Positions 4,474 to 32,000 of a DNA stretch of 32,000 bases are shown one piece after another. Positions within the stretch are counted from its first letter, which is position 1; each line of letters begins with the position of its first letter. A model generated the notes under the pieces. It had not been told where the DNA came from, made no database searches, and saw only the letters and a list, made by a program, of their open reading frames with translations. Both the position numbers and the translations under genes were made by a program. Source of the stretch: Bifidobacterium longum subsp. longum JCM 1217 (GTDB taxonomy: Bacteria > Actinomycetota > Actinomycetes > Actinomycetales > Bifidobacteriaceae); assembly GCF_000196555.1 (NCBI RefSeq), contig NC_015067.1:2280001-2312000 (forward strand). Direction: 5' to 3'.

Positions 4474-7540
<3,067 letters not shown>

Positions 7541-7969: not shown

Positions 7970-9497
<1,528 letters not shown>

Positions 9498-10481: not shown

Positions 10482-10650
10482 AATCTTCTCTTATACGGTC
10501 AGACGCTGGGGTCTGCCGGCCTGTGGCGGCCTGGGAACCGGACAGCGGACGCGGATATGTCGATGTTTCGTCTTGTGGCCAGACAATGCTCATTGCCGTC
10601 TGGTGTCGTTTGCAGGAGGAAGATGCGGTCCAACCGCCAGGGGTTGGAAT

Positions 10651-13717
<3,067 letters not shown>

Positions 13718-14146: not shown

Positions 14147-15674
<1,528 letters not shown>

Positions 15675-18667: not shown

Positions 18668-20491
18668 CTACAACTGGATGACGGCTGCCTCCCACGGGTC
18701 GAGCTCGCGGTTGGCAAGGGAGGCCACGGTGTGCGGAGCGTCATACGTGCTGATCACCACATTCGGCTCGGCGATTCCGACGGCGGCTAGTTCGGCAGCC
18801 TCACGTGGCAGGTCAACGGTTCGACTGGACATATTGACTACGACCAACAACTTCTCAGCGTCGAGCTCACGGGTAAAGGCATAGACGTGCGGATCAGCGG
18901 CGTCAATCAGTCGCCAGTCGCCGGCGGCCACGACCGGGCTGTTGTGACGCAGCGCAACGAGTTGCTTGTAGAAGGAGTACACCGAATCCGGATCATCGAA
19001 TTCACCGGCGGCGTTGATCTCGGCATGATTCGGATTCACGGAAATCCATGGCTCAGTGGCGGCGTCCGGAGCGGTGAAACCGGCGTAGCCGGAACCGTCC
19101 CATTGCATCGGAGTACGCGCGTTGTCACGGCTGCGCGCGGCCAGACCGGCCATCATTGACTCAGACGACTGCACCTTGGCCTCCTCGACCCTCTGCCGGT
19201 AGGCATTCAAGGATTCAAGGTCACGGTACTGGTCGAGACGCGTGAAGTGGGCGTCGGTCATGCCCAGTTCCTCACCCTGATAGATGTACGGGGTGCCGCG
19301 GTGCATGTGCAGCATCAGGCCAAGTGCCTTGGCCGAACGGACGCGGGATTCCTCCGCGGAGTCGTCGCCCCAGCGGGAGACCACGCGCGGCTGATCATGA
19401 TTGCCGGTGAACAAGCTGGCCCATCCTGCGTTCTGCACGGCAGTCTGGTAACCGGCCATAATGCTCTTGAATTTCGGCAGGTCAAGCGGCAGCGGCTTCC
19501 ACTTGGTACCTTCGCAATCAAAATCAACATGCTCGAACAGGAAGAGCATGTCCAATTCACCGTTGCCCGGATCAGTGATGTGCTCGTTACGCTGAGCCGT
19601 GACGCCTGGCGCCTCGCCCACAGTCAGGAAGCCTTCACGCCCCTCGAATACCTCACGTCGCATTTCAGCCAGGAATTCATCCTGACGGGGGCCGTCCGCA
19701 CAGAACGGATTCGGGTTGGAATAGCCCTCCTCGCCCACAGGAAGATCCTCAAGCTCCGAGCCGTACTCGCCCGGCAGCTTGCCGTTCGAATCGGTGCGCT
19801 TGGAGATCAGGGTGATGACGTCCATGCGGAAGCCGTCGACGCCTCGGTCAAGCCACCAGTTCATCATGTCGTACACAGCGCGGCGCACGGCAGGGTTCTC
19901 CCAGTTGAGGTCCGGCTGCTTCTTCGAGAACTGATGCAGGAAGTATTCGCCACGCTCGGGGCAGTATTCCCATGCGGAGCCGCCAAAGTAGGAGCCCCAC
20001 TGATTGGGCTCGGCGCCGGGCTCGCCGGGCGTGGTGCCGGGACGAGCCGGACGCCACCAATACCAGTCGGCGTGTTCGTCGTCTTTGTTCTTGGATGCTT
20101 CAAACCAGGCGTGTTCATCGGAAGTGTGATTGACAACAAGATCCATCACGATCTTGAGCCCACGCTTGTGGGCCTCGGCCAGCAGCTCGTCCATATCGTC
20201 GAGCGTGCCGAACAGAGGATCAATGTCCTGATAGTCGGAAATGTCATAGCCGTTGTCGTCTTGCGGAGACTTATAGACCGGGGATAGCCACAGCACATCC
20301 ACGCCAAGATCAGCTAAGTAATCAAGACGCGACGTGATGCCCTTAAGATCGCCGAATCCATCGCCGTTCGTGTCTTGGAAAGAGCGCGGGTAAATCTGAT
20401 AGACCACCGCGTTGGACCACCACGGATTGGGGGTGGCGCCGTTGGTGCGGATGGCGTCGGGGATTATTGCGCGGTTGAAAGTAGTCATCAT
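18668..20491 (-). CDS. GH13 alpha-glucosidase / oligo-1,6-glucosidase type (607 aa).
   Basis: It has the N-terminal WWSNAVVYQIYPRSFQDTNGDGFGDLKG and the GH13 regions DLVVNHTSDEH, GVDGFRMDVI, VGEAPG and FTGNHDQPR. AGGAG lies only 3 nt before the first ATG, so the second ATG at 20488 may be the real start. Confidence 0.92.
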   Translation of the reverse strand: MMTTFNRAIIPDAIRTNGATPNPWWSNAVVYQIYPRSFQDTNGDGFGDLKGITSRLDYLADLGVDVLWLSPVYKSPQDDNGYDISDYQDIDPLFGTLDDMDELLAEAHKRGLKIVMDLVVNHTSDEHAWFEASKNKDDEHADWYWWRPARPGTTPGEPGAEPNQWGSYFGGSAWEYCPERGEYFLHQFSKKQPDLNWENPAVRRAVYDMMNWWLDRGVDGFRMDVITLISKRTDSNGKLPGEYGSELEDLPVGEEGYSNPNPFCADGPRQDEFLAEMRREVFEGREGFLTVGEAPGVTAQRNEHITDPGNGELDMLFLFEHVDFDCEGTKWKPLPLDLPKFKSIMAGYQTAVQNAGWASLFTGNHDQPRVVSRWGDDSAEESRVRSAKALGLMLHMHRGTPYIYQGEELGMTDAHFTRLDQYRDLESLNAYRQRVEEAKVQSSESMMAGLAARSRDNARTPMQWDGSGYAGFTAPDAATEPWISVNPNHAEINAAGEFDDPDSVYSFYKQLVALRHNSPVVAAGDWRLIDAADPHVYAFTRELDAEKLLVVVNMSSRTVDLPREAAELAAVGIAEPNVVISTYDAPHTVASLANRELDPWEAAVIQL

Positions 20492-20611
20492 TGGCTCCTT
20501 ATTGATATCTATATTGCTCGTTGCTCACAGTCTAAAAATTGGCGAATTACATTCCCATTGGAGAACTGCGTTGGTGTGCCGGAAAATAAATATCAATCGG
20601 CATATGCGCTT

Positions 20612-22474
20612 TCATGATTGCACCCGGAAAACACGCAGTCGGCCGTACTCGATCTCGCAAGTATGGGTTTCTCCCGGATTCATATCAATCGTCGCACCAT
20701 GGTCATCGATGATGCGGCAAGAGCGACCGCTAGCCGTAATAATGCCGATTTGTGGCTGCCGGCGCAATCCGACGAAAGCGATGACCTGTTCTGCGCCGAA
20801 TCTTGCTGTGACACCGAGCGCATAGTCCGTATGTTCGGGGTCATTGAGCAGTGACGCAATGACTGGTCGGGCCGGCTCATCAGGACGCGGTAATGTACCA
20901 TCTTCGGCAAGTAAATCACGCAAGACAGCCGCATCAGTGTGACCGCAGGCATCGGAACAATACACTGGTCCGCCGCTAAGCAATCGGAGCACGGCATGGA
21001 CTCGCGCATGGGGATGCTCCGTCCAGAACATGTCCCAATCACAGTGGTACAGCTCCCCCATCAGCAGTGCACAGTATGCGTTCTGGATAAGGTGTTCGCC
21101 CAGCGAATCAGGATTGTGCGGTAGATAGTCGTCGCTACTACGGGTGATTGGCGATGAAGGACGATGCCAATAATCCTCCGGTGCCATGCCCATGCAGTTA
21201 ATCAATGCGCCGCCGAATCGTCGTGAGGTCACTTCATCAAGCGCCTGATGGCGTCCCCAGGTGGCTTCACCGTAACTTTCGGTGCCACGAACCATTACTG
21301 ACGTGGAACTTTGCGAATCCACTTTGACGAAATCGACGCCGGCTTCGGCGAGTTCGCCGTCCCAGGCATCCCAGAACTGTGCGGGTTGTTCAGCACGACT
21401 TCCAGGAATCAGGCAACCATTCGCCGTGGTGGTTATTGCGGTCGGGCAGCTGGCCGCGGCTACACCCGATTCGTCCAAACCATTCCAATAGCCTTGGAAC
21501 GCCTGCCACACGCCTACGCTGCGCACGCCATAGTGCGTTTTGAGCAGCGCAATGGTGTGGGCAAGCCCGTGGGGGAAACGTTGGCGATCCGCGCCAAAGT
21601 CGATCAGGGTTTCCTTTGTGCGATCCGTGTTGGACCAACCGTCATCGATAAGCACCCAGGAAATGGGCACATGCTTGGCTTGGAACTCCTCCATCTTGTT
21701 GACGATAGCCTGCTCGTTGACATCTCGCCCCAATGAATCCCAAGTACACCATCCCAACCCGGTGAGCGCATCCGGGAATGGACGCTCCTTACGGGTGCGA
21801 ATACCCAGCTGGCGTGCTGCCGTTTGTGTGGCAGCTCGAATGGCCATATACGGGTCGGATGCGCAAGCGATATATGCGGCAGTGTCACATAGAGTCGTGC
21901 GACCAACCCGGTTGGAAGACAGCACGAGCCGCAAAGCCGTGTCATCAGATTCTGTTGCGGGCTGCCCACTGAAATCAGCCCGAATATCCGTGCCGCAGAT
22001 AGCGACCAACACTAGCCACTCGGCATCTTCGGCATCGTTGTTGCGGCGTAACAATAACTGCGTGCGTTCAGGCAGTTCAGATGGTGTACGCACCCAGGTC
22101 GGGCGCATCCACCACTCCTTGTGCTGGTATAGCGCCAGCATGGTGTCATCGTTGCCGCTGTCGACGCCGGCCATGGTGAGCGACACGTCAATCGCATGGT
22201 GGGGCTCAAACGCTTGTTGTTCCTGAAAGGCAGCGGCGCGGTCCTTGGGCTGGGGTGCATGCGCGTTCACATCGATACGCCAGAGTCGCACCTGAGCATC
22301 ACCCTGGATACCCGCACTGGACGTGCACTCGTCTTCGCATGATTCGGGAACGATTGTGACGGCTTCTACCGGCAGTTCACAGATTGCCGAAGCCTGTTCG
22401 CCATAGACGGCACGACCGGTATCAAGATGGGCCGTTACCGTGCGAACGGTTATTGGACAGGTTTCGGCAATCAT
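20612..22474 (-). CDS. GH36-clan glycosidase of the Sip1 (seed imbibition) / raffinose-synthase type, putative alpha-galactosidase (620 aa).
   Basis: It has the motifs GWCTWDS, VLIDDGW, DFVKVDSQ and HCDWDMFW, which are characteristic of that family. The start is moved to MIAETCPITV (ATG 22474), 8 nt after AAGGAG. The track ORF start overlaps the upstream gene. Confidence 0.8.
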   Translation of the reverse strand: MIAETCPITVRTVTAHLDTGRAVYGEQASAICELPVEAVTIVPESCEDECTSSAGIQGDAQVRLWRIDVNAHAPQPKDRAAAFQEQQAFEPHHAIDVSLTMAGVDSGNDDTMLALYQHKEWWMRPTWVRTPSELPERTQLLLRRNNDAEDAEWLVLVAICGTDIRADFSGQPATESDDTALRLVLSSNRVGRTTLCDTAAYIACASDPYMAIRAATQTAARQLGIRTRKERPFPDALTGLGWCTWDSLGRDVNEQAIVNKMEEFQAKHVPISWVLIDDGWSNTDRTKETLIDFGADRQRFPHGLAHTIALLKTHYGVRSVGVWQAFQGYWNGLDESGVAAASCPTAITTTANGCLIPGSRAEQPAQFWDAWDGELAEAGVDFVKVDSQSSTSVMVRGTESYGEATWGRHQALDEVTSRRFGGALINCMGMAPEDYWHRPSSPITRSSDDYLPHNPDSLGEHLIQNAYCALLMGELYHCDWDMFWTEHPHARVHAVLRLLSGGPVYCSDACGHTDAAVLRDLLAEDGTLPRPDEPARPVIASLLNDPEHTDYALGVTARFGAEQVIAFVGLRRQPQIGIITASGRSCRIIDDHGATIDMNPGETHTCEIEYGRLRVFRVQS

Positions 22475-22505
22475 TGGCGTAACTCCTTGGTGTTCTTCAA
22501 TGAGA

Positions 22506-24176
22506 TTATGCTGGCAAGGCCCAGACGGTAGCAGCTGGAGGAACGCTCTCGACCTGAGTGTTCGCCTGCACAGTCGCGTCAGACACAAGTAGCACGGTCA
22601 TCGGCTGCGGCAAGGCGACTGGTTGACTGTCAGAGAAGTTCGCCATCACAACCATGCCGGACGGCAAGCGCCAACCAAGCAGCGGCGCCGGACACTCTTC
22701 GTTGGTAAGCCACGAGAACTGGAAGTCCGTGCCGTTGGCCACCCACTGTTTGCGCAATGCGACAGCAGCACAATACAGGTGCAGGACGGAAGCCCCGTCA
22801 CCAATCTGACGATTAGTGGCATACTGCGCAAACCATGCCGGCTGGGGCAGCCACGAAGCACCGGTGGCATTGAAGCCGAACGCCGGGCCGTCTGACTGCC
22901 ACGGCAGCGGTACGCGGCAACCGTCGCGCCCCTTGAAATAATGACCGGAACGTTCCCAATTGGGATCCTGAATTTCATCTTCGGTCAAATCAAAGTCCTC
23001 CGGCAAACCAAGCTCTTCACCCTGATACACAAAGGCGGTACCTGGCAGGCCGAGCATCACCAGCGCTGCTGCACGGGCACGACGAGCGGCGAGCGCGGGG
23101 TCAATCGGCGGATTCGTGCCGTTGGACGTCACCCACTGCTCGATGTTTGCACCGCTCGGCAGTCCGAGACGCGAGGCGATACGTGGCACATCGTGGTTGC
23201 CGAGCACCCAGGTGGGGGCGGTTTCGGCAGCGAGAGCATAGCGATGCGTGCGCTCAATCGTGGTGCGGTATTCTTCGCGATTCCAGGCGGCCTTTGACAT
23301 GGAGAAGTCGAATACGGCACCAAGTTCATCAGGCTTGGCGTATTGGAAAATACGGGTGGTGAATGGCGACCACGATTCGCCGACCGCATACTTGGCTGGC
23401 GTGTACTGATTGAACAGGTCGCGCCATTCACGGTAGATATCATGCACGGCGTCGCGGTCCCAGAGCGGATCGGAGCCATCGGTAGCCTGTGGAGACATCA
23501 GTGTCGGGTCGATACGGTCGCGCAGCGGCTCACGCAGGTCTTTGGCCAGACCGTGCGAGACATCGATGCGGAAACCGTCCACACCGCGATCGCACCAGAA
23601 TGTGAGTACACGCAGGAACTCATGCCGCACCTCGGGATTGTCCCAATTGAGGTCCGGCTGCTCCTTGGCGAACAGATGCAGGTAGTACCAGCCGTCTCCA
23701 CACGACTCCCATGCGGAACCGCCGAAGTTACTCAGCCAGTTGGTAGGCGGCAATTCGCCGTGCTCCCCCTTGCCCTGCCGGAACACATACCGTTGTGCCG
23801 CTTCCGATTCCGGACCTTGAGCCAGGGCCTCTTGGAACCAACGGTGCTGATCGGACGTGTGGTTCGGCACGATGTCCACGATGATGCCGATACCGCGTTC
23901 GTGCGCTTTGGCCACTAATTCGTCGAACTGATCGAGTGTGCCAAGGCGGGGATCCACATCACAATAGTCGGCAACATCATAACCTCCATCCGCCAGCGGC
24001 GATGGATAGAATGGAGAAAGCCAGAGCGCGTCCACCCCGAGCGCCTGCAGATAGTCGAGACGATCGATCACGCCTTGGAGATCACCGTTGCCGTCTCCAT
24101 TGGCATCGCTGAATGAGCGGGGGTAAATCTGGTAGATGACGGCGTCGCGCCACCAGTCATTGTTGGTGAAAGTCAT
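22506..24176 (-). CDS. GH13 alpha-glucosidase / oligo-1,6-glucosidase type (556 aa), paralogue of 18668..20491.
   Basis: It has WWRDAVIYQIYPRSFSDANGDGNGDLQG and the GH13 regions DIVPNHTSDQH, GVDGFRIDVSHG, VGESW and LGNHDVPR. Confidence 0.92.
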   Translation of the reverse strand: MTFTNNDWWRDAVIYQIYPRSFSDANGDGNGDLQGVIDRLDYLQALGVDALWLSPFYPSPLADGGYDVADYCDVDPRLGTLDQFDELVAKAHERGIGIIVDIVPNHTSDQHRWFQEALAQGPESEAAQRYVFRQGKGEHGELPPTNWLSNFGGSAWESCGDGWYYLHLFAKEQPDLNWDNPEVRHEFLRVLTFWCDRGVDGFRIDVSHGLAKDLREPLRDRIDPTLMSPQATDGSDPLWDRDAVHDIYREWRDLFNQYTPAKYAVGESWSPFTTRIFQYAKPDELGAVFDFSMSKAAWNREEYRTTIERTHRYALAAETAPTWVLGNHDVPRIASRLGLPSGANIEQWVTSNGTNPPIDPALAARRARAAALVMLGLPGTAFVYQGEELGLPEDFDLTEDEIQDPNWERSGHYFKGRDGCRVPLPWQSDGPAFGFNATGASWLPQPAWFAQYATNRQIGDGASVLHLYCAAVALRKQWVANGTDFQFSWLTNEECPAPLLGWRLPSGMVVMANFSDSQPVALPQPMTVLLVSDATVQANTQVESVPPAATVWALPA

Positions 24177-24276
24177 ATCGTTCCCCTGTCCGATTGCTCG
24201 GTACGTATGGTTTTACCAGTATGGCCGCACGAAACACTGTTCCGGCGGCCATACCCTACATCCTCTTGCCTTCGGA

Positions 24277-25101
24277 TCAGCCCTTAACCGAGCCGGCAAG
24301 CATGGCGCGGATGAAGTAGCGCTGGAGGAAGATGAACAGGATCATCGTCGGTGCCATGATGAGCAGTGCGCCCGCGTTGAGCAGCACCACGTCGGTCTGA
24401 TACTGGCCAACGAACGACTGTAGGGCACCTGCCATCGTGCGCTTGTTCGGGTCGTTCTCCAACACCACAGCCAACAGGAACTGGTTCCAGGTGGCCAGGA
24501 AGGTCAGAATACCGAGCGAGGAGATGGCTGGCAGTGCCAACGGCAGCTGAATGGAACGGAACGTGCGCAGATGGCCTGCACCATCGATGGATGCGGCTTC
24601 GATCAGATCACGCGGCATCTGCTCGAAGCAGGAGCGCATCCACACAATACCGAACGGAATATTCAGGCCGATGAGCGGCAGGATCAGGGCAAGACGGGTA
24701 TTCAGCAAGCCCATGCCACTGATCTCGTAGTACAGCGGAGTGACCAAGGTTTCGAACGGAATGGTCAGACCGACGAGGAACAGCACGTAGATCAGGCCCT
24801 TGCACGGCACCTTGAGCTGAGCGAAGGCATAACCGCCGAGCGAGCAGAAGATCACCACGCAGGGCACGACCACGATCACCAGAATGCAGCTGTTGAGCAG
24901 CAGCGGGGTGATGTTTGCCATGTTCCAGGCGTCGATGAAGTTCTCCCAGTGCGGGTGGGCAGTGAACTGGATACCTTCGGGCATGGAACCTTGCGGCTGC
25001 AATGCCGCGGAGAGCATGCTCAGGAACGGCAGTACGCAGAAGAGGACGGTCAGAGCGAGCATCGCCGTGCCGGTGATGCGAACGGCTTTGGATTGCTGCA
25101 T
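24277..25101 (-). CDS. Carbohydrate ABC transporter permease, MalG-like (274 aa).
   Basis: It is multi-pass hydrophobic with the EAA loop EAASIDGAGHLRTFRSIQLPLALP. The start at MQQSKAVRITG (ATG 25101) lies 2 nt after the stop of the upstream permease gene, which suggests translational coupling. Confidence 0.88.
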   Translation of the reverse strand: MQQSKAVRITGTAMLALTVLFCVLPFLSMLSAALQPQGSMPEGIQFTAHPHWENFIDAWNMANITPLLLNSCILVIVVVPCVVIFCSLGGYAFAQLKVPCKGLIYVLFLVGLTIPFETLVTPLYYEISGMGLLNTRLALILPLIGLNIPFGIVWMRSCFEQMPRDLIEAASIDGAGHLRTFRSIQLPLALPAISSLGILTFLATWNQFLLAVVLENDPNKRTMAGALQSFVGQYQTDVVLLNAGALLIMAPTMILFIFLQRYFIRAMLAGSVKG

Positions 25102-25103
25102 GG

Positions 25104-26015
25104 TCACTGCTCCTTTCCGTTGACCAGACGCTGCAGAGGTCCGACGACCAGCAGCACGAGAATCATCAGGGTGACGGCGAGTGCGGAGGCCAAGCCAACG
25201 CTCTGCTGGGTGAAGGCCAAGCGGTAGACCTGCACGCCGGGCACCATGGTGGAGGTGCCGGGGCCGCCCTGAGTGGACATGTACACCACGTCGAAGCTGG
25301 CGAGCGCGGAGATGATGGTCATGGTCAGGCATACGCCGATTTGGCCGCGCAGACCGGGCAACGTGATGGAGAAGAGCTGACGCCACCAGCCGGCACCGTC
25401 AAGACTTGCTGCCTCGTACAGGGACTGGTCGATGCCGCCGATGCCCGAGAGCAAGAGCACCACACAGAAGCCGAGCTGCAGCCAGAAACCAATCACGCCT
25501 ACCGCGTTCAGGGAGGTGGATTGGTCGCCGAGCCACACGTGGGCGAAGTCGCCGAGGCCTACTGCGCGCAGCAGCTGATTGGCGGTGCCCTTGTCGGCCA
25601 GCATCCAGGTCCAGGCCACACCGGCTGCAGCGCCTGGGATAACGCGCGGCAGGAACAGGCAAACCTGCGCGAAGGAACGACCGACCTTGGACTTCATGTC
25701 TTTGATGAGCACGGCAATGATCAGGCCGAGCACAATCGGGATGATGGAGAAGAAGATGATCAGGTAGAAGGAGTGCAGAATCGATCCGTACAGATCGGGG
25801 TCGGTGAACACGGTGATGTAGTTTTCGACACCGATGAAGGTGCTAGCATCGATACCGTTCCACTCGTAGAACGAGTACCAGATGGTCTGAATGATCGGCC
25901 ACAACTCGAAGGCGATGTAGAACACAAGCGCCGGAGCGAGGAAAAGCAGGCTGACCAGACCGAGGGACATATTGCGCTTGGGCTTGACCGCCTTGGCTGC
26001 CTTATGGGAATCCAT
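25104..26015 (-). CDS. Carbohydrate ABC transporter permease, MalF-like (303 aa).
   Basis: It has the EAA loop EAASLDGAGWWRQLFSITLPGL. The start is chosen at MDSHKAAKAVKPKRNMSLG (ATG 26015). ATG 26063 is an alternative start. Confidence 0.85.
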   Translation of the reverse strand: MDSHKAAKAVKPKRNMSLGLVSLLFLAPALVFYIAFELWPIIQTIWYSFYEWNGIDASTFIGVENYITVFTDPDLYGSILHSFYLIIFFSIIPIVLGLIIAVLIKDMKSKVGRSFAQVCLFLPRVIPGAAAGVAWTWMLADKGTANQLLRAVGLGDFAHVWLGDQSTSLNAVGVIGFWLQLGFCVVLLLSGIGGIDQSLYEAASLDGAGWWRQLFSITLPGLRGQIGVCLTMTIISALASFDVVYMSTQGGPGTSTMVPGVQVYRLAFTQQSVGLASALAVTLMILVLLVVGPLQRLVNGKEQ

Positions 26016-26147
26016 GATTGTCACCACGCTTTGCTGGTTTGGTGTGAACTGGGAATCGAACATCGCACACAACGTCGTGCGCGCGATGGGAAGGAACCAG
26101 GCGGAGCGGGAAAAAGGGAAGAACACTCCGCCCGGTAAGTGCAAGGG

Positions 26148-27473
26148 TTACTTGACCTCCTTCTCGTACTGAGCCTGAATGGATTCGACGAATGCCTTGG
26201 GGGTCATCGTGCCGTCAATCAGGGACTGGAAGCCGGGGATAATGGCGCTGGCCTGCATACCTGCGGTGGCGTTGTTGATGTAGTCGGTGGTGTTACCGGT
26301 CTTCACCAGACCTTCGTAGGCGGTAAGGACCTGGCCGAGAAGCTGGTTATCGGTGCTCGGAGTCTCGCCTTCGCCGACCGGCGGGTAGCCGTTGTCAACT
26401 GCGATCTGGCGGGCTTCGTCGGACTGGAGGAAGTCGAGGAAGGCGGCTGCAGCGTTCTTGTTCTTGGCGTTGGCCGGGATACCGAAAGCGGTCACGGCGT
26501 TGGCTGCGGCAGAACCGGAATCGGCCTTTTCGCCGGGGAAGGCGATCCAGCCGGCGTCATCGCCAAGTGCATCGTTGATGGAGGCGGAGTACCAGCTGCC
26601 GGAGGGGAAGAACAGGGCTTCGCCGTTGCAGAAGCGGCTCAGTGCAGTGGAACCGTCAAGGGCGAGCGCGTCGGAGGAGAAGTAACCGGCATCCTGCCAG
26701 TCCTTGATCTTCTGTGCAGCCTTCACGGCACCGTCGGTGTTGAAGGTGGCGCCATCCTTCTGGATAATCCAATCCTGCACGGTATCGCGACCCTCATAGT
26801 TGGTGAGCAATGCCTGGTAGATGTAGGAAGTGCCGCCTTCCTTGGCCGGCATCATCATGGCGAGCTTGCCAGCGTCGGAGGCCTTCTTCATATCGGCCTC
26901 GAGCTCTTCGACAGTGGCCGGAGCCTCGGTGATGCCGAGTTCCTTGGCGACTTTCTTGTTCCAGTACAGGCCGGTCATCGAGACACCGTCCGGCACTGCG
27001 TAGAGGCTGCCGGAACCGATCTTACCGTCGGAGCCCACGCGGTAGACCTGAGTCTGGGAATCCGGCAGCTTCCAACCGTAAGCATCGGCGTAAGCGTCAA
27101 GATTGACGACATGGTTGCCACGCACAGCGGAGTTGATGTCGGTGATACGGGCAATGTCCGGGGTGTCGGCGGCGGAGATGATGCGCGGGCCATTCTGCTG
27201 GGAGGTGTTGTCCGGATCGTAGGTGGCCTTGATGGTGATGTTCGGGTACTTCTTCTGGAAGGCTTCGATCAGCTGGTCATCAAAGGTCTTCAGGCCAGCG
27301 CCGTCCCACAGCTTGAGCTCATACTTGGTATCGCCAAGATCAGTGCTCACCGCTTCGGTTTCGGTGTTGGCTTTGTTGCTGGACGAGCCCGGGCCGCAAG
27401 CGGCGACGGATGCCAGGCATGCCACAGACATCAGACCGGCAATAACGGTTTTGGCGGTTCGTTCGATCCTCAT
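26148..27473 (-). CDS. Sugar ABC transporter solute-binding lipoprotein (441 aa), here called SBP1.
   Basis: It has a signal peptide with a lipobox (LASVAAC) and the features of a family-1 extracellular solute-binding protein. A GAAAGGA ribosome-binding site lies upstream. It is the first gene of the operon. Confidence 0.9.
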   Translation of the reverse strand: MRIERTAKTVIAGLMSVACLASVAACGPGSSSNKANTETEAVSTDLGDTKYELKLWDGAGLKTFDDQLIEAFQKKYPNITIKATYDPDNTSQQNGPRIISAADTPDIARITDINSAVRGNHVVNLDAYADAYGWKLPDSQTQVYRVGSDGKIGSGSLYAVPDGVSMTGLYWNKKVAKELGITEAPATVEELEADMKKASDAGKLAMMMPAKEGGTSYIYQALLTNYEGRDTVQDWIIQKDGATFNTDGAVKAAQKIKDWQDAGYFSSDALALDGSTALSRFCNGEALFFPSGSWYSASINDALGDDAGWIAFPGEKADSGSAAANAVTAFGIPANAKNKNAAAAFLDFLQSDEARQIAVDNGYPPVGEGETPSTDNQLLGQVLTAYEGLVKTGNTTDYINNATAGMQASAIIPGFQSLIDGTMTPKAFVESIQAQYEKEVK

Positions 27474-27530
27474 TGATCATTCCTTTCTTCCTTCCGGGCG
27501 ATCCCGGCTATGTCTTCCTTGGCTATCTCG

Positions 27531-27591
27531 GCTTAGCGTATTTGCTAAGCGCTTATGCATGAGGATAACAGATGTCGAACCGGTTCGTCAA
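27531..27591 (-). promoter_or_regulatory. Candidate promoter and LacI-type operator of the SBP1 operon.
   Basis: On the minus strand, TTGACG (27586..27591) is followed by a 17-18 nt spacer and TATCCT (27562..27567). The perfect palindrome TAAGCGCTTA (27546..27555) follows immediately. It overlaps the inverted repeat GCTTAGC-N6-GCTAAGC (27531..27550). Confidence 0.5.
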
Positions 27592-27633
27592 ATCCGCAAC
27601 ACGCAAACAAATGGCCGATTCCCGAAGAAATGA

Positions 27634-27668
27634 GGAAGGCTTGACGTTCCCCATAGGCAAGCACTTCC
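27634..27668 (-). terminator. Candidate terminator after the GH172-type gene.
   Basis: GGAAGGCTTG (27634..27643) pairs with CAAGCACTTCC (27658..27668), with one bulge and a 14-nt loop. TCATTTCTTC follows on the minus strand. Confidence 0.35.
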
Positions 27669-27704
27669 TTCTCGCGAAATTGCAACATCGGTCCCTTAAA
27701 TACC

Positions 27705-27714
27705 TAAGCGCTTA
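27705..27714. promoter_or_regulatory. Second copy of the TAAGCGCTTA palindrome.
   Basis: The 12-mer CTAAGCGCTTAT is shared with the site at 27545..27556. This copy lies 6 nt beyond the stop of the GH172-type gene and about 120 bp upstream of the SBP1 promoter. Confidence 0.4.
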
Positions 27715-27719
27715 TTCAT

Positions 27720-28838
27720 TCACCTAGGATGACGTTTCGAAGGCTCGGGCAGCTCGGGAAAAATTGAATGTGGCTCAATTTGATACCAGTACGCCACGCT
27801 AGACACATCATCCTGACGCTCAAATGCACCTTCATATCCTGAACCAATTTGTTGAAGCGTGACTCTAAGCTCACTATCAAACCTGATGGGATCAGGAATA
27901 TGCCATCGGTACAAGCCACGCATAGGTGGACAATAATCGTCATGATATTGGTTTGCTATAGCCCCATCGCGCACAGAATAAAATGGATATCCTACATATG
28001 GGGCACAAAAAGTACGCTCGCGCGTATGACCATCTCGCTGCTCAGCGAAGCTCCATGCACCGCCAAAATAATCTTCGGTGCCGGTACTACACACTGTGGG
28101 ATAATCGTTATCGCCATCTAGGAAAAACTTAATCTCTCCCTCACCCCACCAATATCGTTGCAACGTAGAAATAGCAAGATATGTGCCGACGTAATGGCCC
28201 CGTCCGCTGACTCCATCGAGGATTACATAGTCCTCGCCTAAAGTAGTGATTGGCTGTCTGCGCCATTGCGCATGGAAATAAGCCATTTCACGGGAGGAAT
28301 ACGCATTACCCAATGCATAATCAATCTGATAAAACAAAGCCGGAATAGCATGAGCGTGGTCATTGCGCACTACGATACGTGCCCGTTTACGAAACGGCAT
28401 CGTGAAATAACAATTCATACCTCGTGTAGGTGCCACCACAATAGGCTCTGAGAACACATCGCAACTTTGTCCAAAGCCGCAACAGAAGAAGTCTCCTAGG
28501 GGACATTCCACAGAAGGTCGCTTTTCATCATCCCAATAGATGGCAAGCACCGCATCGCGCAGAACGTATCGATCAGCGTCACTGGTGCGATCCGTAACGG
28601 TAAACCACATGTGCCGAATACAACCGGGGCCTTCAATATCTGCCAATGTCACAGACTGCCCGGGAGCAATGTCATTCAAACACGGCTTTCCCTTGCGCGA
28701 CGGCCCCAACGGACCAGTTTCACGGCAACCAAAACCCTTGGCTCCCGTTGGGTTCTCCGCATTAATCGAACATGTTACTTCGTCGCGGACAGTCGGCAAA
28801 TCCGATAAAGTTCCCGCGTACGGTCCTGCCATCATCAT
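27720..28838 (-). CDS. DUF2961 / glycoside hydrolase family 172-type protein (372 aa).
   Basis: It has the family-typical blocks GPGCIRHMWFT, NCYFTMPF, FYQIDY and WWGEGEIKFFLDGDNDYPTVCSTGTEDYFGGAW. It has no signal peptide, so it is predicted to be cytoplasmic. AGGAG lies 9 nt before the ATG. GC content is lower than in the flanking operon. Confidence 0.7.
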   Translation of the reverse strand: MMMAGPYAGTLSDLPTVRDEVTCSINAENPTGAKGFGCRETGPLGPSRKGKPCLNDIAPGQSVTLADIEGPGCIRHMWFTVTDRTSDADRYVLRDAVLAIYWDDEKRPSVECPLGDFFCCGFGQSCDVFSEPIVVAPTRGMNCYFTMPFRKRARIVVRNDHAHAIPALFYQIDYALGNAYSSREMAYFHAQWRRQPITTLGEDYVILDGVSGRGHYVGTYLAISTLQRYWWGEGEIKFFLDGDNDYPTVCSTGTEDYFGGAWSFAEQRDGHTRERTFCAPYVGYPFYSVRDGAIANQYHDDYCPPMRGLYRWHIPDPIRFDSELRVTLQQIGSGYEGAFERQDDVSSVAYWYQIEPHSIFPELPEPSKRHPR

Positions 28839-28899
28839 AGGTTGACTCTCCTCAAATCAAGCGTCGCTAGCGAAAGCGGCATATAAGTTGAAGCTGTTT

Positions 28900-30228
28900 C
28901 TACCGCTTCGCTTCTTTGTCATATTGCGCCTGCACATTCTTTGTGAATTCCTGAGGCGTGATGCTGTTATCCAGCAGTAACTGGAAGTTAGGGATTAGCC
29001 CACTTGACTGCATTCCCGCAGTAGCATTATTAATGAAATCGCTAGTATGACCGCTCGTCAGCACGTCGGCATAGGCATCAAACATACTCTGCTGCAATGC
29101 GCTATTCGCCTTGAGATCCAAAGTAGATGATTTTGGCAAATAGCCAGAATTGTCAACAATAATCTGTTGCGCTTCGGCACTTTGCGTATAATCGAGGAAC
29201 GCCGCAGCAGCATCACGGTTCTTAGCATTCACCGGAATACCATAAAATGCACCTGCATTAGCAGCAACGTTCGGCTCATCTTCACTGGTGGCACCCGGGA
29301 AAGCAAAGAACTGAACATCATCACCCAGCGCTTTGGCCACAGTATCCAGATTCCAATTACCGCTCGGGAAAAATAGTCCTTCACCATTGCAGAACCTGCT
29401 CAGAGCAGTAGAGGCATCCACTGCGTTAACACCTTCAGGCATATATCCCTTGTTATTCCAATCCTGCAAGGTGGACGCAGCGTCCTGCGCCGCCTGATTG
29501 TCGAAGGTACCAGATTTCTGCAAAATCCAATTCTGCACATCTTCCGCAGAACTGTTATTAGCCATTAACGCCTGAAAGACAAAAGAGGTACCGCCATCCT
29601 TGGCATATGTCATCATCGGCAGTATGCCGGCATCCTTGGCTGTCTGCATATCCGCCTCAAACTCCTCGACAGAGGTAGGAGCTGCATCAATACCTAGCTG
29701 CTCGGCAAGCTTGGTATTGAAATAAATGCCAGTCACCGAATAGGAGTTCGGCAATGCGTACAAATCACCGCTGCCGAGCTTGCCATTTGAATCCACTCGA
29801 TACAATTCAGTCTGCGAATCGGGAACATCCCAGCCGTACGCATCCACATATGCCTCTAAAGACACCAAATGGTTGCCACGAACCGCTGAATTCATGTCGG
29901 TGACGCGGGCGATATCCGGCGCATCTTTTGCTGAAATCACACGCGGGCCATTTTGTCCAGAGACATTATCCGGATCATATTGTCCCGTGATGGTGATGTT
30001 TGGGTATTTCGCTTCGAACCCGGCAATCAGCGCCTCATCTACAGCCTTCAGACCCGCTCCATCCCACAAAGTCAGCTCATATTTTTTATTACCTAAATCA
30101 GTGCTGACCTCAGTAGGATTTGTATCACTTCGTGAGCTACTTGCCGAGCCGGGACCACATGCAGTCAGACTTCCAGCGATAAATATCGCAGCAAGCGCCG
30201 CGCCGCTGTTACGCATAATCCTATTCAT
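28900..30228 (-). CDS. Sugar ABC transporter solute-binding lipoprotein (442 aa), here called SBP2, a paralogue of SBP1.
   Basis: It has a lipobox (GSLTAC) and a strong AAGGAGG site 6 nt before the ATG. By hand alignment, 79 of 111 residues match SBP1 over YEL(K/T)LWDGAGLK...LYA(V/L)P. The nucleotide composition is much less GC-rich. Confidence 0.9.
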   Translation of the reverse strand: MNRIMRNSGAALAAIFIAGSLTACGPGSASSSRSDTNPTEVSTDLGNKKYELTLWDGAGLKAVDEALIAGFEAKYPNITITGQYDPDNVSGQNGPRVISAKDAPDIARVTDMNSAVRGNHLVSLEAYVDAYGWDVPDSQTELYRVDSNGKLGSGDLYALPNSYSVTGIYFNTKLAEQLGIDAAPTSVEEFEADMQTAKDAGILPMMTYAKDGGTSFVFQALMANNSSAEDVQNWILQKSGTFDNQAAQDAASTLQDWNNKGYMPEGVNAVDASTALSRFCNGEGLFFPSGNWNLDTVAKALGDDVQFFAFPGATSEDEPNVAANAGAFYGIPVNAKNRDAAAAFLDYTQSAEAQQIIVDNSGYLPKSSTLDLKANSALQQSMFDAYADVLTSGHTSDFINNATAGMQSSGLIPNFQLLLDNSITPQEFTKNVQAQYDKEAKR

Positions 30229-30254
30229 CGGTTACCTCCTTGCATCCTCATCAT

Positions 30255-30358
30255 ATGCAATCGATATTTCTCTTTACTGTCACCATTTTTCGGCGGCAAT
30301 AAAATATATTTGCGATATCGATTACGCACATCGTACATCTTTTTGCGGAACCCGTCAA
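30255..30358 (-). promoter_or_regulatory. Candidate promoter and operators of the SBP2/GH172 transcription unit.
   Basis: On the minus strand, TTGACG (30353..30358) is followed by a 17-nt spacer and TACGAT (30330..30335). One nt later comes the pseudo-palindrome TGCGTAATCGATATCGCA (30311..30328, 14 of 18 positions symmetric). A related site, ATGCAATCGATAT, lies at 30255..30267. Confidence 0.5.
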
Positions 30359-30400
30359 CCTTGCATCACACCAATGGTGGCCTTAACTTCAAAATCCAGA

Positions 30401-30421
30401 TACAATACAATCGATTACGCA
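30401..30421 (+). promoter_or_regulatory. Candidate -10 element and operator in front of the cassette LacI gene.
   Basis: TACAAT (30401..30406) is followed directly by ACAATCGATTACGCA (30407..30421). ATCGATTACGCA is repeated exactly from 30317..30328, and AATCGATT is a perfect 8-bp palindrome. AGGAG lies at 30426..30430. Confidence 0.4.
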
Positions 30422-30435
30422 ATGCAGGAGATCCC

Positions 30436-31464
30436 ATGAGCGAACCAACAATCTATGAAGTAGCCAAGGAGGCTGGAGTCTCTGCGGCGACCGTATCTCG
30501 TGCAATCAACGGACGTGACCGCATATCGGAAACTACTAGGCAAAAGGTATTTGATGCATGTGCAAAGTTGGGGTTTTCAGCATCGAAAACAGCCTCCATG
30601 CTGCGAACGGGAAAGACAAATCGTATAGCACTTACCGTAGGTAACTCACTGGCTGGCTGGTTCAGTTCACAACTAGCCGAAGGCGTATATTCCGTGCTCG
30701 CATCCCAAGGATATGACTTGCTATCATACCGACTTGCAAACGCCGATCAAAGACGCGATTTCTTTTCCTCAATGCCAGTGAAGCGCAACGCAGACGCGGT
30801 CATCATCTCCTCCTTCGACATCAGCGAGACAGAGAGGCGAACCTTAGAACAACTCGGTATGCCAGTCATCGGTGTCAACACCATCGGGCTTACGGAACAG
30901 CGAGATATGATTTCCATCGGCGTAGACGAAATTATAGCAATGCGACAAACCGTTCATCAGCTCGCAGGACTGGGACATCGCAATATCGCCTTTATCTGCA
31001 AGCAGCAAGACAGTAACGGATTCATATGGGAAGCTGACCAACGTATAGAAGGGTTCCGTCTTGGCATGGCGGCTGAGGGACTCAACTTGCCCGACGGATA
31101 CATCATCGCAGTACAGGACAACGAATTTGCCGGAGCAGAGGCACTCAGTAGCCTGCTCGCACTCTCCCCTCGCCCAACCGCCGTATGCTGCATCAGCGAC
31201 GAGAATGCCATTCCTCTAGTCCATGCGCTTCGCTCATACGGATTCCGCGTACCTGAGGACATATCCGTCATCGGATTCGATGACTGGCCAATGGCACAAG
31301 CGCTCAATATATCAACCGTTCGGCACGACCCTCGGTCCTACGGAGCATTAGCGGCAGATGCCGCAATCCGATTATCACGAGGCGAAATTCTGACAGAAAG
31401 TTGCATCGTTGTTCCCACGACGCTCATGTTGCGCGGCACCACAGGCCCAGCACCTCGAGATTAA
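30436..31464 (+). CDS. LacI-family transcriptional regulator (342 aa), lower-GC cassette copy.
   Basis: It has the N-terminal HTH MSEPTIYEVAKEAGVSAATVSRAINGRDRISETTRQKV and a periplasmic-binding-protein-like sugar domain. The start is moved from the track ORF to the ATG at 30436, behind AGGAG. Confidence 0.9.
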   Translation: MSEPTIYEVAKEAGVSAATVSRAINGRDRISETTRQKVFDACAKLGFSASKTASMLRTGKTNRIALTVGNSLAGWFSSQLAEGVYSVLASQGYDLLSYRLANADQRRDFFSSMPVKRNADAVIISSFDISETERRTLEQLGMPVIGVNTIGLTEQRDMISIGVDEIIAMRQTVHQLAGLGHRNIAFICKQQDSNGFIWEADQRIEGFRLGMAAEGLNLPDGYIIAVQDNEFAGAEALSSLLALSPRPTAVCCISDENAIPLVHALRSYGFRVPEDISVIGFDDWPMAQALNISTVRHDPRSYGALAADAAIRLSRGEILTESCIVVPTTLMLRGTTGPAPRD

Positions 31465-31581
31465 ACATCGACAACGTCCGCATTTGATGATGTGCATATC
31501 ATTATTGCAACAGCGAAACAACAGGTACCAGCCAGAGGAAGGACGACCGGGTAACAGCCACAAGGCGGCCACCCATTCACC

Positions 31582-32000
31582 ATGAAACGCGCGACCATCA
31601 ACGACGTAGCTCTCACGGCCGGAGTCTCAACTTTTACCGCATCCCGCGCTTTGCGAGGTAAGGATCACGTGGCAGCAGCTACGCGGGATAAGGTGCTGAA
31701 AGCGGCCAAAGAGCTGAATTACACCGCGTCTCGCTCGGCGGCGGCGCTGGCAAGCGGACGCACCAATCGCATTGCCATGCTGGCTCGCGAACGGCTGGCC
31801 GGCTGGTTCATGGGCGAATTATTCGACGGGCTGTATGACGAACTGAGCCGCGCACGCTATGACTTGACCGTATACCGAGCCGGCAGCGTCGAGGAGCGTG
31901 CGGAATTCTTTACTCGGCTGCCAGCCAATCGTAACGCCGACGCCCTCATCGTATCCGGATTTTCCGCCACCGATGAGGAAGCCGACACGTTGGCCAGCAT
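31582..32000 (+). CDS. LacI-family transcriptional regulator, 5' partial (continues past the window end), high-GC copy.
   Basis: Not in the ORF track because there is no stop inside the window. Translation reads MKRATINDVALTAGVSTFTASRALRGKDHVAAATRDKVLKAAKELNYTASRSAAALASGRTNRIAMLARERLAGWFMGELFDGLYDE... An in-frame stop at 31552 excludes a longer N-terminus. It is a paralogue of 30436..31464. Confidence 0.85.
   Translation, partial: MKRATINDVALTAGVSTFTASRALRGKDHVAAATRDKVLKAAKELNYTASRSAAALASGRTNRIAMLARERLAGWFMGELFDGLYDELSRARYDLTVYRAGSVEERAEFFTRLPANRNADALIVSGFSATDEEADTLAS

Follow-up and report, generated by a model that had tools for sequence, protein, structure and literature searches.

A Ser-type GH172 glycosidase in a compositionally foreign cassette of the Bifidobacterium longum melezitose locus, with a fructose-based sugar as its favoured substrate

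The gene at positions 27720..28838 (minus strand) of the window, i.e., the 32,000-nucleotide stretch of the Bifidobacterium longum chromosome that was analysed, encodes a glycosidase of the GH172 (DUF2961) family. With the genes for a solute-binding protein (SBP2) and a LacI-type repressor (LacI-a) it constitutes a low-GC, compositionally foreign three-gene cassette that is newly recognised here. The favoured explanation of this arrangement, with a probability of about 0.55, is that the foreign cassette operates with a shared MelB/MelC permease and a cytoplasmic GH172 enzyme, which would most likely function as an alpha-D-fructofuranosidase on an imported fructose-based sugar.

Few human gut commensals and probiotics have received as much study as B. 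longum and B. breve. Although the GH172 protein is catalogued in more than 50,000 assembly blocks, the label of its regulon remains "unknown sugar utilization". On the basis of its sequence it belongs to a large clade of the family, the Ser-type clade, that contains no characterised member, the characterised GH172 enzymes being a handful that all fall outside it. Naming the sugar would close a recognised gap in the carbohydrate maps of bifidobacteria and would calibrate the residue separating fructofuranosidase from arabinofuranosidase activity in GH172. Additionally, it could reveal a dietary niche, perhaps of cooked-food or caramel-type fructose anhydrides, that these bifidobacteria share with Blautia and other Lachnospiraceae.

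The GH172 protein and its active site

The gene, the orthologue of Bbr_1861 of B. breve, encodes 372 amino acids from an ATG start, with a GAGGAG ribosome-binding site 8 nt 5' of it. A first-pass annotation had assigned exactly this open reading frame to GH172 and proposed a PF11175 search and an alignment to the B. dentium enzyme as checks. The assignment holds on both: the score along the full profile (1-235/235) is 309.3 bits (E 2.2e-92), the cutoff being 27, and none of the catalytic residues is lost. The precomputed domains on the protein are GH172_1st, GH172_dom and GH172_2nd, and NCBI names the exact protein 'glycoside hydrolase family 172 protein [Bifidobacterium longum]'. A search of the PDB matched all four distinct GH172 sequences, namely 8ic8 (5e-72), 7v1v (5e-48), 4kq7 (2e-42) and 8ah3 (2e-35), while an NCBIfam scan yielded no model matching this protein or the MelE-like protein encoded nearby. 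A pseudogene or chance reading frame is ruled out by the full length, the invariant catalytic residues and the identical copies of the protein catalogued in 52,237 assembly blocks. The protein is cytoplasmic, as had been claimed: a 12-residue hydropathy scan peaks at 0.66, with no N-terminal hydrophobic segment or signal peptide, and the neighbouring lipoprotein SBPs reach 2.27 and 2.43.

An AlphaFold2 monomer model (mean pLDDT 78, pTM 0.83) was compared with known structures by Foldseek, which returned a TM-score of 0.84 to 8ic8 and scores of 0.72-0.75 to 7v1v, 4kq7 and 8ah3, followed by viral double jelly-roll capsid proteins. As modelled, the protein has the double jelly-roll fold. The pLDDT falls below 50 at residues 263-265 and 287-304, and the pocket near the specificity-discriminating residue is therefore uninterpretable from the model.

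Residues E255, E233, D256, W230 and W262 are the counterparts of E291, E270, D292, W267 and W298 of alphaFFase1, the characterised B. dentium enzyme; they align unambiguously within the motifs WWGEGE and GTGTEDYFGGAW and are invariant in 44 clade members. The roles of the catalytic and -1 subsite residues of alphaFFase1 come from published mutagenesis, and in the B. longum protein E255 is predicted to be the nucleophile and E233 the acid/base. The position that discriminates between specificities is filled by S263, which is invariant in the Ser-type clade. Members of GH172 retain the anomeric configuration in acting on alpha-D-furanosides and form trimer-based oligomers with the active site at the subunit interface; from its residues, we infer that the B. 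longum protein is likewise a functional anomer-retaining exo-alpha-D-furanosidase.

The cassette and its place in the mel locus

SBP2 (28900..30228, minus strand; BAJ67542.1 and others), the orthologue of Bbr_1862, is a lipoprotein solute-binding protein with a SBP_bac_1 domain, a hydrophobic N-terminal signal and the lipobox L-T-A-C. The 61-nt gap between SBP2 and the GH172 gene, which lie on the same strand, contains a ribosome-binding site and no hairpin. LacI-a (30436..31464, plus strand), with Pfam LacI and Peripla_BP_3 domains, is divergent from SBP2 and is the positional orthologue of MelR2 (Bbr_1863). The GC content of these three genes is 0.49-0.52, with LacI-a at 0.52, as against 0.57-0.60 in the flanking genes. 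In B. longum and B. breve the cassette is situated between a MelR1-like repressor and the melezitose operon, whereas in B. saguinibicoloris (locus L087) LacI-a stays with SBP2 and GH172 at a different position.

The flanking genes on the minus strand encode SBP1 (26148..27473), a MelA-like solute-binding lipoprotein orthologous to Bbr_1860; the MelB-like (25104-26015, 303 aa) and MelC-like (24277-25101, 274 aa) ABC permeases, both with BPD_transp_1 domains; and, as assigned from Pfam, NCBIfam and the B. breve gene table, a MelD-like GH13 (22506-24176), a MelE-like GH36/Raffinose_syn protein (20612-22474) and an Agl GH13 (18668-20491). On the other side of the cassette, the 5' part of a second repressor, LacI-b (31582..32000, plus strand; MelR1/Bbr_1864-like), runs off the window, its full gene being present in locus L001; it is 85% identical to the LacI encoded 5' of SBP2 in B. 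saguinibicoloris. A melezitose (mel) cluster was reportedly described in B. breve UCC2003 by O'Connell et al. in 2014. The present locus is the orthologue of that published cluster, with an identical order of ten genes (two LacI, SBP, 372-aa GH172, SBP, two permeases, GH13, Raffinose_syn/GH36, GH13). In B. breve JCM 7019 (L093), the sequence compared here, the Bbr_ names being those of UCC2003, gene order and sizes are the same and the block shares 98-99.8% nucleotide identity with B. longum (GH172 99.1%, SBP2 98.9%, LacI-a 99.2%). Bbr_1861-1863 show no substantive difference from their B. longum counterparts, representing the same system in a sister species. The adjoining GH13 and GH36 alpha-glycosidases named by the first-pass annotation are both present by Pfam; it had overlooked that they are part of a separately regulated, characterised mel cluster of B. 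breve and B. longum, and that the GH172 gene corresponds to Bbr_1861 of that cluster.

The dedicated LacI repressor that the annotation had postulated agrees with the regulon reconstruction of Khoroshkin et al. 2016, in which MelR2 (Bbr_1863) has a single two-gene operon under its control, for 'unknown sugar utilization'; the published regulon annotation thereby sets this pair apart from the five mel genes. Bbr_1861 appears in the literature only as 'hypothetical protein', and GH172, DUF2961 and Bbr_1861 all go unmentioned in the supplements of a large bifidobacterial reconstruction.

A consensus scan predicts a promoter-like site for SBP2-GH172 at 30330..30358 (minus strand; TTGACG, 17-nt spacer, TACGAT), and the same -35/-10 arrangement (TTGACA ... 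TACGAT) is kept 5' of SBP2 in B. saguinibicoloris. A putative LacI-a (MelR2-type) operator, GCGTAATCGATATCGC (30312..30327, minus strand), begins 3 nt after the -10 hexamer, with an identical 16-mer at the same place in that species. Pattern matching locates two further ATCGAT-centred sites on the minus strand: TAATCGATTG (30408..30417), which lies between the LacI-a start codon and the SBP2 promoter and might serve autoregulation of LacI-a, and ATATCGATTG (30258..30267) in the SBP2 5' leader. The pattern occurs three times in the window against an expectation of 0.62, always within this intergenic region, at 30258-30417. The melA-like operon has its own predicted promoter-like site (27562-27591, minus strand, consensus scan), 6 nt downstream of which a putative MelR1-type operator, ATAAGCGCTTAG (27545..27556, minus strand), is conserved along with the promoter in B. 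saguinibicoloris. A second, exact copy of ATAAGCGCTTAG is found a few nt past the GH172 stop codon (27704..27715, minus strand); these are the only two exact matches in the window, both in 27545-27715, as compared with 0.04 expected. The copy at 27545..27556 putatively delimits the GH172 module from the mel regulon. The SBP2 promoter would thus possess a putative operator type of its own, distinct from the melA operator, and the division of B. breve MelR1 and MelR2 into two regulons is consistent with two such types. The pairing of SBP2 with GH172 in one transcript under LacI-a repression, as earlier supposed, remains a prediction to which the retention of promoter-like site and putative operator in a second species lends support.

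Inspection of open reading frames and Pfam domains reveals no permease gene within the cassette, which would therefore have to borrow MelB/MelC, a point missed by the first-pass annotation; these are the only permeases locally available to SBP2, which probably shares them with MelA. SBP2 is 55% identical to its paralogue, the MelA-like SBP1, and at most 27% identical to the SBPs adjoining other GH172 genes. Sharing is further favoured by the coding changes that Bbr_1862 acquired in 4 of 5 E. coli isolates during evolution on melezitose. Its relatives in the PDB are weak (E ~1e-14; chitin-, mannan- and arabino-oligosaccharide binders), and hence no ligand can be deduced from them.

Relation to the characterised GH172 enzymes

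The first-pass annotation drew on the B. dentium enzyme, without recognising that the present protein is, by its sequence, not an orthologue of it but a member of the Ser-type clade, with an arabinofuranosidase as the closest solved relative. This relative is ExoMA1 of Microbacterium arabinogalactanolyticum (PDB 8ic8), an arabinofuranose-specific GH172 exo-alpha-D-arabinofuranosidase in which Asn253 blocks the binding of alpha-D-fructofuranose. Both proteins are ~370-378 aa long, lack a long C-terminal helix and have identical WWGEGE and GTGTEDYFGGAW catalytic motifs; further, ExoMA1 also lacks a signal peptide and acts intracellularly on ABC-imported oligosaccharides. However, the two are only 42% identical, ExoMA1 falls outside the query's clade, and its Asn253 is replaced by Ser. 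Moreover, the D-arabinan locus that encodes ExoMA1 also contains GH183, GH116, an isomerase and a kinase; neither GH183, GH116, a D-arabinose isomerase nor such a kinase was detected in the window or the B. longum loci, and the neighbours in the window and loci L001-L006 are confined to SBPs, permeases, LacI/ROK regulators and GH13 or GH36. Orthology with ExoMA1 is rejected on account of the missing Asn253 and arabinan context and the placement of ExoMA1 outside the clade. An ExoMA1-type Asn at the discriminator position occurs in none of 86 relatives examined.

B. dentium alphaFFase1 comes from the same family and genus, is cytoplasmic with an adjoining ABC transporter, has the same -1 subsite residues except for Tyr187 (Phe in the query), and shows a functional link to GH32, as do many relatives of the query. 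In contrast, identity amounts to ~45% over the alignable core and 29-31% in the structural alignment, and Gly299, which gives room for the C1 hydroxymethyl of fructofuranose, corresponds to Ser263. Activity on inulobiose/DFA I depends, according to mutant data, on Glu85' and Lys147' of the +1 subsite, which lie in alphaFFase1-specific insertions without counterpart in the query. Likewise, the 51-residue C-terminal helix (397-448) that builds the alphaFFase1 hexamer is absent from the query, which ends at residue 372; the Foldseek TM-score normalised to 7v1v is only 0.60-0.62. Unlike the B. dentium gene, which has an adjacent GH32 gene, its B. longum counterpart has none adjacent, and no GH32 was found in the window or in 21-kb B. 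longum loci. In a published reconstruction, the DFA pathway of the B. dentium type is confined to a separate clade of B. longum. With Gly299, the +1 subsite and the C-terminal helix all missing, orthology with the B. dentium DFA I enzyme is also rejected.

The remaining solved members, DgGH172c (8ah3) and BACUNI_00161 (4kq7) from Bacteroidota, share the fold and the catalytic glutamates with the query at 33-35% identity, but carry a Cys at the discriminator position, which in BACUNI_00161 has been argued to clash with fructofuranose; the latter is, in addition, secreted. Across 84 diverse family representatives with an intact motif this position is highly variable (G 45, N 14, S 9, C 6, D 5, A 2, Y 2, M 1), an indication that the two known specificities are not the only ones.

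Genomic context of the clade and the probable sugar

A census of 285 neighbours in 43 Ser-clade loci identified GH32 as the only recurrent glycosidase, with at least 12 proteins, in addition to 3 PfkB kinases and 1 FucI. Of 84 related loci, in which GH172 and GH32 reading frames were located by phmmer/hmmsearch, 12 have GH32 at a distance of up to 10 kb and 7 at no more than 200 bp, the loci with a nearby GH32 coming from Paenibacillus, Lachnospiraceae, Spirochaetes, Kribbella, Microbacterium and B. scardovii. FucI, a fucose/D-arabinose isomerase, occurs in 2 of the 84. In Ala-type sister clades, GH172 is accompanied by a LevR-like regulator and a mannose/fructose-family PTS, and a ROK kinase directly after GH172 exceeds the ScrK fructokinase equivalog cutoff (402 vs 400 bits); no match in Pfam, NCBIfam or the PDB was obtained for a 700-aa partner protein conserved in the PTS-linked loci. 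DUF2961-GH32 fusion proteins also exist. With GH32 as the sole recurrent glycosidase partner and ScrK fructokinase in distant relatives, an alpha-D-fructofuranosidase is favoured, and the sugar would be alpha-linked fructose in preference to D-arabinose. The earlier statement that the substrate is unreadable from the sequence, with a DFA or an alpha-arabinofuranoside as candidates, stands insofar as the sugar is still not named; however, the context narrows the choice to the fructoside over the arabinoside.

Several observations run counter to a fructoside. In size, Ser263 is close to the Cys of the arabinofuranosidase DgGH172c, the closest characterised enzyme is arabinofuranose-specific, and GH32 is adjacent in only 9 other Ser-clade loci (~1 in 5), and not in B. 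longum. The +1 subsite residues on which alphaFFase1 relies for DFA I/inulobiose are lacking. Natural alpha-D-fructofuranosides are rare. Bifidobacteria have been reported not to ferment DFA III or IV, and Blautia handles DFA III by a GH91 enzyme; on these grounds DFA III is rejected as the substrate.

Were the protein instead an exo-alpha-D-arabinofuranosidase, SBP2 would import short D-arabino-oligosaccharides from Corynebacteriales/Mycobacteriales walls or similar D-arabinans, to be trimmed to D-arabinose. This is unlikely, although ExoMA1 is the best match in both sequence and structure, all characterised GH172 enzymes cleave pNP-alpha-D-Araf, the discriminator Ser resembles the DgGH172c Cys in size, and the fucose/D-arabinose isomerase gene lies directly before GH172 in the Cys-type locus L048 and nearby in the Ser-type locus L040. 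Against it, beyond the distance from ExoMA1 and the lack of its Asn253, the window and B. longum locus have no GH183, GH116, isomerase or pentulose kinase, FucI is outnumbered by GH32 (2 vs 12 of the 84 loci), and in the sister clades the gene next after GH172 encodes a ScrK fructokinase. A further furanoside of related ring configuration, i.e., an alpha-linked psicose, tagatose or sorbose ketofuranoside or a mixed fructose-glucose dianhydride, would accord with the variable discriminator position and with a +1 subsite unlike both characterised types in a clade without a characterised member; nevertheless, nothing positive points to any particular one of these, fructose is the simplest account of the GH32 and fructokinase associations, and such a substrate is quite unlikely.

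Still more improbable is an accessory function in the melezitose/alpha-glucoside pathway, whereby SBP2 and GH172 would handle melezitose, turanose or a close honeydew sugar along with MelA-E. The gene lies inside the mel cluster, with which it moves between species at the above-noted B. breve/B. longum identities, SBP2 is a paralogue of MelA, a convincing terminator between GH172 and melA is lacking in B. longum, and E. coli evolved on melezitose acquired Bbr_1862 coding changes in 4/5 isolates. However, none of these isolates had mutations in Bbr_1861, and gene-trait matching for melezitose growth picked out Bbr_1856 and Bbr_1860 rather than the SBP2-GH172 pair. Further, neither melezitose nor its breakdown products have an alpha-furanosidic bond, while all characterised GH172 activities are on alpha-D-furanosides; the pair differs in base composition and has its own repressor, putative operator and published regulon; a repressor gene and a hairpin intervene between GH172 and melA in B. 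saguinibicoloris; and most Ser-clade loci elsewhere lack GH13 or GH36 partners. A role in melezitose breakdown itself is rejected on the grounds of bond type, regulon and base composition.

Under the favoured fructofuranosidase reading, LacI-a would occupy the ATCGAT-centred operators overlapping the SBP2 promoter as long as no inducer is present, and the cognate sugar would allow expression of SBP2 and GH172. SBP2 would capture the sugar outside the cell and deliver it to the MelB/MelC permease shared with its paralogue MelA, the ATPase for this import being presumably encoded elsewhere. In the cytoplasm, GH172 would remove or open a terminal alpha-D-furanosyl linkage, the unit removed most likely being alpha-D-fructofuranose, and a GH32 beta-fructofuranosidase encoded elsewhere in the genome would finish any beta-linked remainder. 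The substrate could be a small fructose-based sugar other than DFA III/IV, e.g., a difructose anhydride formed by heating or by an enzyme, or an oligosaccharide related to one. As a tentative and rather doubtful extension, the Ser-type clade as a whole might represent a widespread alpha-D-fructofuranosidase system that has so far gone unrecognised, acting on alpha-fructosides or fructose anhydrides other than DFA I and DFA III. Its proposed range would cover B. longum, B. breve, other bifidobacteria, Blautia, other Lachnospiraceae and Paenibacillus, with furanose-pyranose diheterolevulosans, glycosylated DFAs from cooked food and microbial fructotransferase products as possible substrates. In B. 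longum and B. breve, access to the sugar would stem from a horizontally acquired cassette of repressor, SBP and enzyme that was attached to the melezitose permease already present.

Apart from the identity of the sugar, the locus is a compact case of a cassette of binding protein and enzyme that probably depends on the permease of a neighbouring transporter.

A GH172 enzyme in the melezitose locus

The gene read by the first-pass annotation as encoding a cytoplasmic GH172 (DUF2961) enzyme is real, and that reading is supported as a whole. The open reading frame occupies exactly the coordinates proposed (27720-28838, minus strand), with an ATG start preceded at 8 nt by a GAGGAG ribosome-binding site, and its 372-aa product matches Pfam PF11175 over the full profile length at 309 bits (cutoff 27). 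In the PDB it matches each of the four distinct GH172 sequences, i.e., the exo-alpha-D-arabinofuranosidase ExoMA1 of Microbacterium arabinogalactanolyticum (8ic8, E = 5e-72), alphaFFase1 of B. dentium (7v1v, 5e-48), BACUNI_00161 (4kq7, 2e-42) and DgGH172c (8ah3, 2e-35). An AlphaFold2 model built on an alignment of 44 clade members (mean pLDDT 78, pTM 0.83) superimposes on 8ic8 with a TM-score of 0.84 (0.72-0.75 for the remaining three structures), the next matches being viral double jelly-roll capsid proteins, as the fold predicts. The hydropathy scan bears out the claimed absence of a signal peptide: the N-terminus lacks a hydrophobic stretch (maximum 12-residue hydropathy 0.66, against 2.27 and 2.43 in the two adjacent lipoprotein solute-binding proteins, or SBPs), and hence the protein is placed in the cytoplasm. 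This core description can be held with high confidence. The identical protein, to which NCBI gives the name glycoside hydrolase family 172 protein, is catalogued in 52,237 assembly blocks, complete genomes among them.

On the operon strand, a GH36 alpha-galactosidase, a ROK regulator and the raf ABC transporter, all beyond the window, are followed by the repressor genes LacI-b (from 31582, plus strand) and LacI-a (30436-31464, plus), SBP2 (28900-30228, minus), GH172, the MelA-like SBP1 (26148-27473, minus), two permeases, a GH13, a Raffinose_syn/GH36 and a further GH13 gene. The locus is that known from B. breve UCC2003 as the melezitose (mel) cluster, which comprises MelR1, MelR2, the SBP Bbr_1862, the "hypothetical protein" Bbr_1861, MelA-MelE and Agl (PMC9177967; PMC6045613). 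As B. breve JCM 7019 shares the architecture of the B. longum locus, with a 372-aa GH172 between two SBPs, the "hypothetical protein" of the cluster is a GH172 enzyme. The regulon entries for this cluster in the supplements of Khoroshkin et al. (PMC4746261 supplements) assign melezitose and five genes to MelR1 (Bbr_1864), and "Unknown sugar utilization", with one site and one operon of two genes, to MelR2 (Bbr_1863). The start of the MelB-like permease (25104-26144, minus) is ambiguous: the longest frame opens at TTG 26144 (346 aa), and public gene calls mostly use ATG 26015 (303 aa), with some giving 340-346 aa.

Active site and placement in the family

In the alignment to alphaFFase1 that the first-pass annotation had proposed, the catalytic and -1 subsite residues W267, E270 (acid/base), E291 (nucleophile), D292 and W298 find their counterparts in W230, E233, E255, D256 and W262, all of which are invariant across the clade to which the protein belongs. 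Tyr187' of alphaFFase1 is replaced by Phe169; in alphaFFase1, the Y187F mutation left 90% of the pNP-Araf activity and 31% of that on inulobiose. Specificity has been proposed to depend on the residue after W298: Gly299 of alphaFFase1 leaves the C1 hydroxymethyl group of fructofuranose enough space, Asn253 of ExoMA1 obstructs fructofuranose binding, and DgGH172c and BACUNI_00161 carry a cysteine. The B. longum enzyme has Ser263 at this position, and the discriminator residue alone is therefore ambiguous. The position is clearly plastic: in a set of 84 diverse representatives whose motif is intact, it is G in 45, N in 14, S in 9, C in 6, D in 5, A and Y in 2 each and M in 1. Additionally, the +1 residues Glu85' and Lys147', needed by alphaFFase1 for inulobiose and difructose dianhydride (DFA) I, lie in alphaFFase1-specific insertions which the B. 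longum enzyme lacks, as it does the long C-terminal helix.

In a neighbour-joining tree of 90 sequences, the protein falls inside a large coherent clade with serine at the discriminator position (Ser-type), drawn from bifidobacteria, Lachnospiraceae, Clostridia, Paenibacillus and one spirochaete, and surrounded by Ala-, Cys- and Gly-type sister groups. Every characterised GH172 enzyme lies outside this clade; identities are 42% to ExoMA1, about 45% to alphaFFase1 over the alignable core only, and 33-35% to DgGH172c and BACUNI_00161. Among the 6,440 family representatives that an exhaustive search yields at 50% clustering, the Ser-type clade amounts to essentially one, and our literature search found no paper characterising any of its members. 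In a published reconstruction, the DFA pathway of the B. dentium type is confined to a separate clade of B. longum.

Gene neighbourhoods and the probable substrate

Neighbourhoods were compared across 80 related loci from species genomes, among the matches listed, and four more bifidobacterial loci. In the commonest layout in Firmicutes, genes for a histidine kinase and an AraC-type response regulator precede an SBP gene, a pair of permease genes, GH172 and another SBP gene, with GH172 usually the sole glycosidase. Among 285 proteins encoded within 4.5 kb of 43 genes of the Ser-type clade, a Pfam census recovered 33 ABC permeases, 27 SBPs, 12 histidine kinases, at least 12 GH32 proteins, three PfkB kinases, two to four GH13, two GH51 and one fucose/D-arabinose isomerase, GH32 being the only recurrent glycosidase. 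By HMM search, GH32 genes lie within 10 kb of GH172 in 12 of the 84 loci, all Ser- or Ala-type and spanning five phyla, and within 200 bp in seven of these 12, often on both flanks; most closely they resemble the BT1760 endo-levanase type, and some are classical GH32. DUF2961-GH32 fusion proteins are also on record. Further, in sister clades of the Ala type (Collinsella, Enterococcus and others), GH172 accompanies a LevR-like sigma-54 activator and a PTS of the mannose/fructose family, with a ROK kinase gene directly downstream; the Enterococcus raffinosus kinase exceeds the NCBIfam ScrK fructokinase equivalog cutoff (402 against 400 bits), and that of Collinsella has ScrK as its best NCBIfam match, below the cutoff.

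A D-arabinose isomerase occurs near GH172 in only two of the 84 loci. One, in Paenibacillus sp. J31TS4 (L048:7954-9807, plus), adjoins a Cys-type GH172, which fits the arabinofuranosidase activity of the Cys-type DgGH172c; the other, in Eisenbergiella (L040:13976-15775, plus), is close to a Ser-type GH172 with three flanking GH32 genes, a mixed signal. Judging from these contexts, the sugar released by the Ser/Ala group is most likely fructose, i.e., the members of the group would be alpha-D-fructofuranosidases, and for the B. longum enzyme itself a fructoside is modestly favoured. Since most loci, that of B. longum among them, have no GH32, completing the breakdown would fall to a beta-fructofuranosidase from another part of the genome. 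B. longum is known to possess such an enzyme. The alphaFFase1 determinants for DFA I are missing. DFA III and DFA IV are reportedly not fermented by bifidobacteria, and Blautia breaks down DFA III by a GH91 enzyme. Other caramel or fructotransferase products containing an alpha-D-fructofuranosyl unit are plausible candidates.

The gene was already annotated as GH172, and earlier work had marked the operon as a regulon for an unknown sugar within a well-known locus. What is added here is the identity of the gene with Bbr_1861, a view of the module as a cassette that would rely on the permease of the mel system, the assignment of the enzyme to a Ser-type clade without characterised members and the context-based preference for an alpha-fructofuranoside; we give the overall explanation a probability of about 0.55.

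Two side observations concern related loci. In Microbacterium sp. RU1D (L070, 2328-18674), an Ala-type GH172 lies amid five GH32-like genes and an oligopeptide-type (SBP_bac_5) ABC system, an arrangement that suggests a locus devoted to some complex fructan or a substrate derived from one. Directly upstream of GH172, loci linked to a PTS in Enterococcus, Catenibacterium and Bombilactobacillus and one locus of Lachnobacterium (L066:7911-10013, plus; L067, L068 and L045) encode a conserved 620-700-aa protein that has no match in Pfam or NCBIfam, nor by sequence in the PDB; it may be an undescribed partner enzyme.

Regulation and history of the cassette

SBP2 and GH172 are separated by 61 nt without a hairpin. 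Upstream of SBP2 lies a promoter-like site (TTGACG, 17-nt spacer, TACGAT), followed after 3 nt by the putative operator GCGTAATCGATATCGC (30312-30327) and accompanied by two further ATCGAT-centred sites; the three found in the whole window, against 0.62 expected, all fall in this intergenic region. The 246-nt gap between GH172 and SBP1 has its own promoter-like site (27562-27591) and two copies of a different palindrome, ATAAGCGCTTAG, against 0.04 expected. Both predicted promoter-operator pairs are kept in B. saguinibicoloris despite diverged surroundings, which fits the published scheme of two repressors and two operators. A search for a terminator downstream of GH172 in B. longum found none convincing, and read-through into melA is hence possible; B. 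saguinibicoloris, in contrast, has a hairpin and a repressor gene in this gap. The hairpin there (L087, 11119-11256) is GC-rich, reads CCCGTCACC-CCC-GGTGACGGG and directly follows the GH172 stop codon.

LacI-a, SBP2 and GH172 have a GC content of 0.49-0.52 (GC3 0.44-0.52); for LacI-b and the flanking mel genes the values are 0.57-0.60 and 0.59-0.82. Between B. longum and B. saguinibicoloris the cassette genes are 77-86% identical and the mel genes 93-95%. In composition, arrangement and divergence, the three genes thus act as one unit with a separate history. Its internal order is not fixed, as the LacI-a orthologue (77%) of B. saguinibicoloris is inserted between GH172 and melA, the gene divergent from SBP2 there being the LacI-b orthologue (85%). 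The cassette contains no permease. SBP2 is a 55% identical paralogue of MelA and at most 27% identical to SBPs beside GH172 genes elsewhere; we infer that it docks on MelB/MelC. A hint in the same direction comes from E. coli evolved on melezitose with the B. breve cluster, in which four of five isolates acquired coding changes in Bbr_1862 and none in Bbr_1861 (PMC9177967).

B. breve and B. longum share 98-99.8% nucleotide identity over the block from LacI-b to MelE, about 11 kb (window 18669-32000 against L093, B. breve JCM 7019, 2126-15458; also L091 and L092), whereas the flanking genes are far more diverged (agl 84.5%, PALP 85.5%, raf permease 94.9%), indicating a recent transfer of the island from one species to the other. 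In other B. breve genomes the entire block is missing, and the raf transporter adjoins agl directly.

Elsewhere in the window, long frames, the largest of 445 aa, lie on the strand opposite real genes (26139-27476, 19247-20287 and 25341-26138, all plus, among others); they have no family support in Pfam and are base-composition artefacts of GC-rich DNA. The repeated pattern of open reading frames is due to two complete tandem rRNA operons (4188-15674, minus), about 6.2 kb apart and with identical model scores, which comprise 5S (4188-4304 and 10365-10481), 23S (4475-7540 and 10652-13717) and 16S rRNA genes (7973-9497 and 14150-15674).
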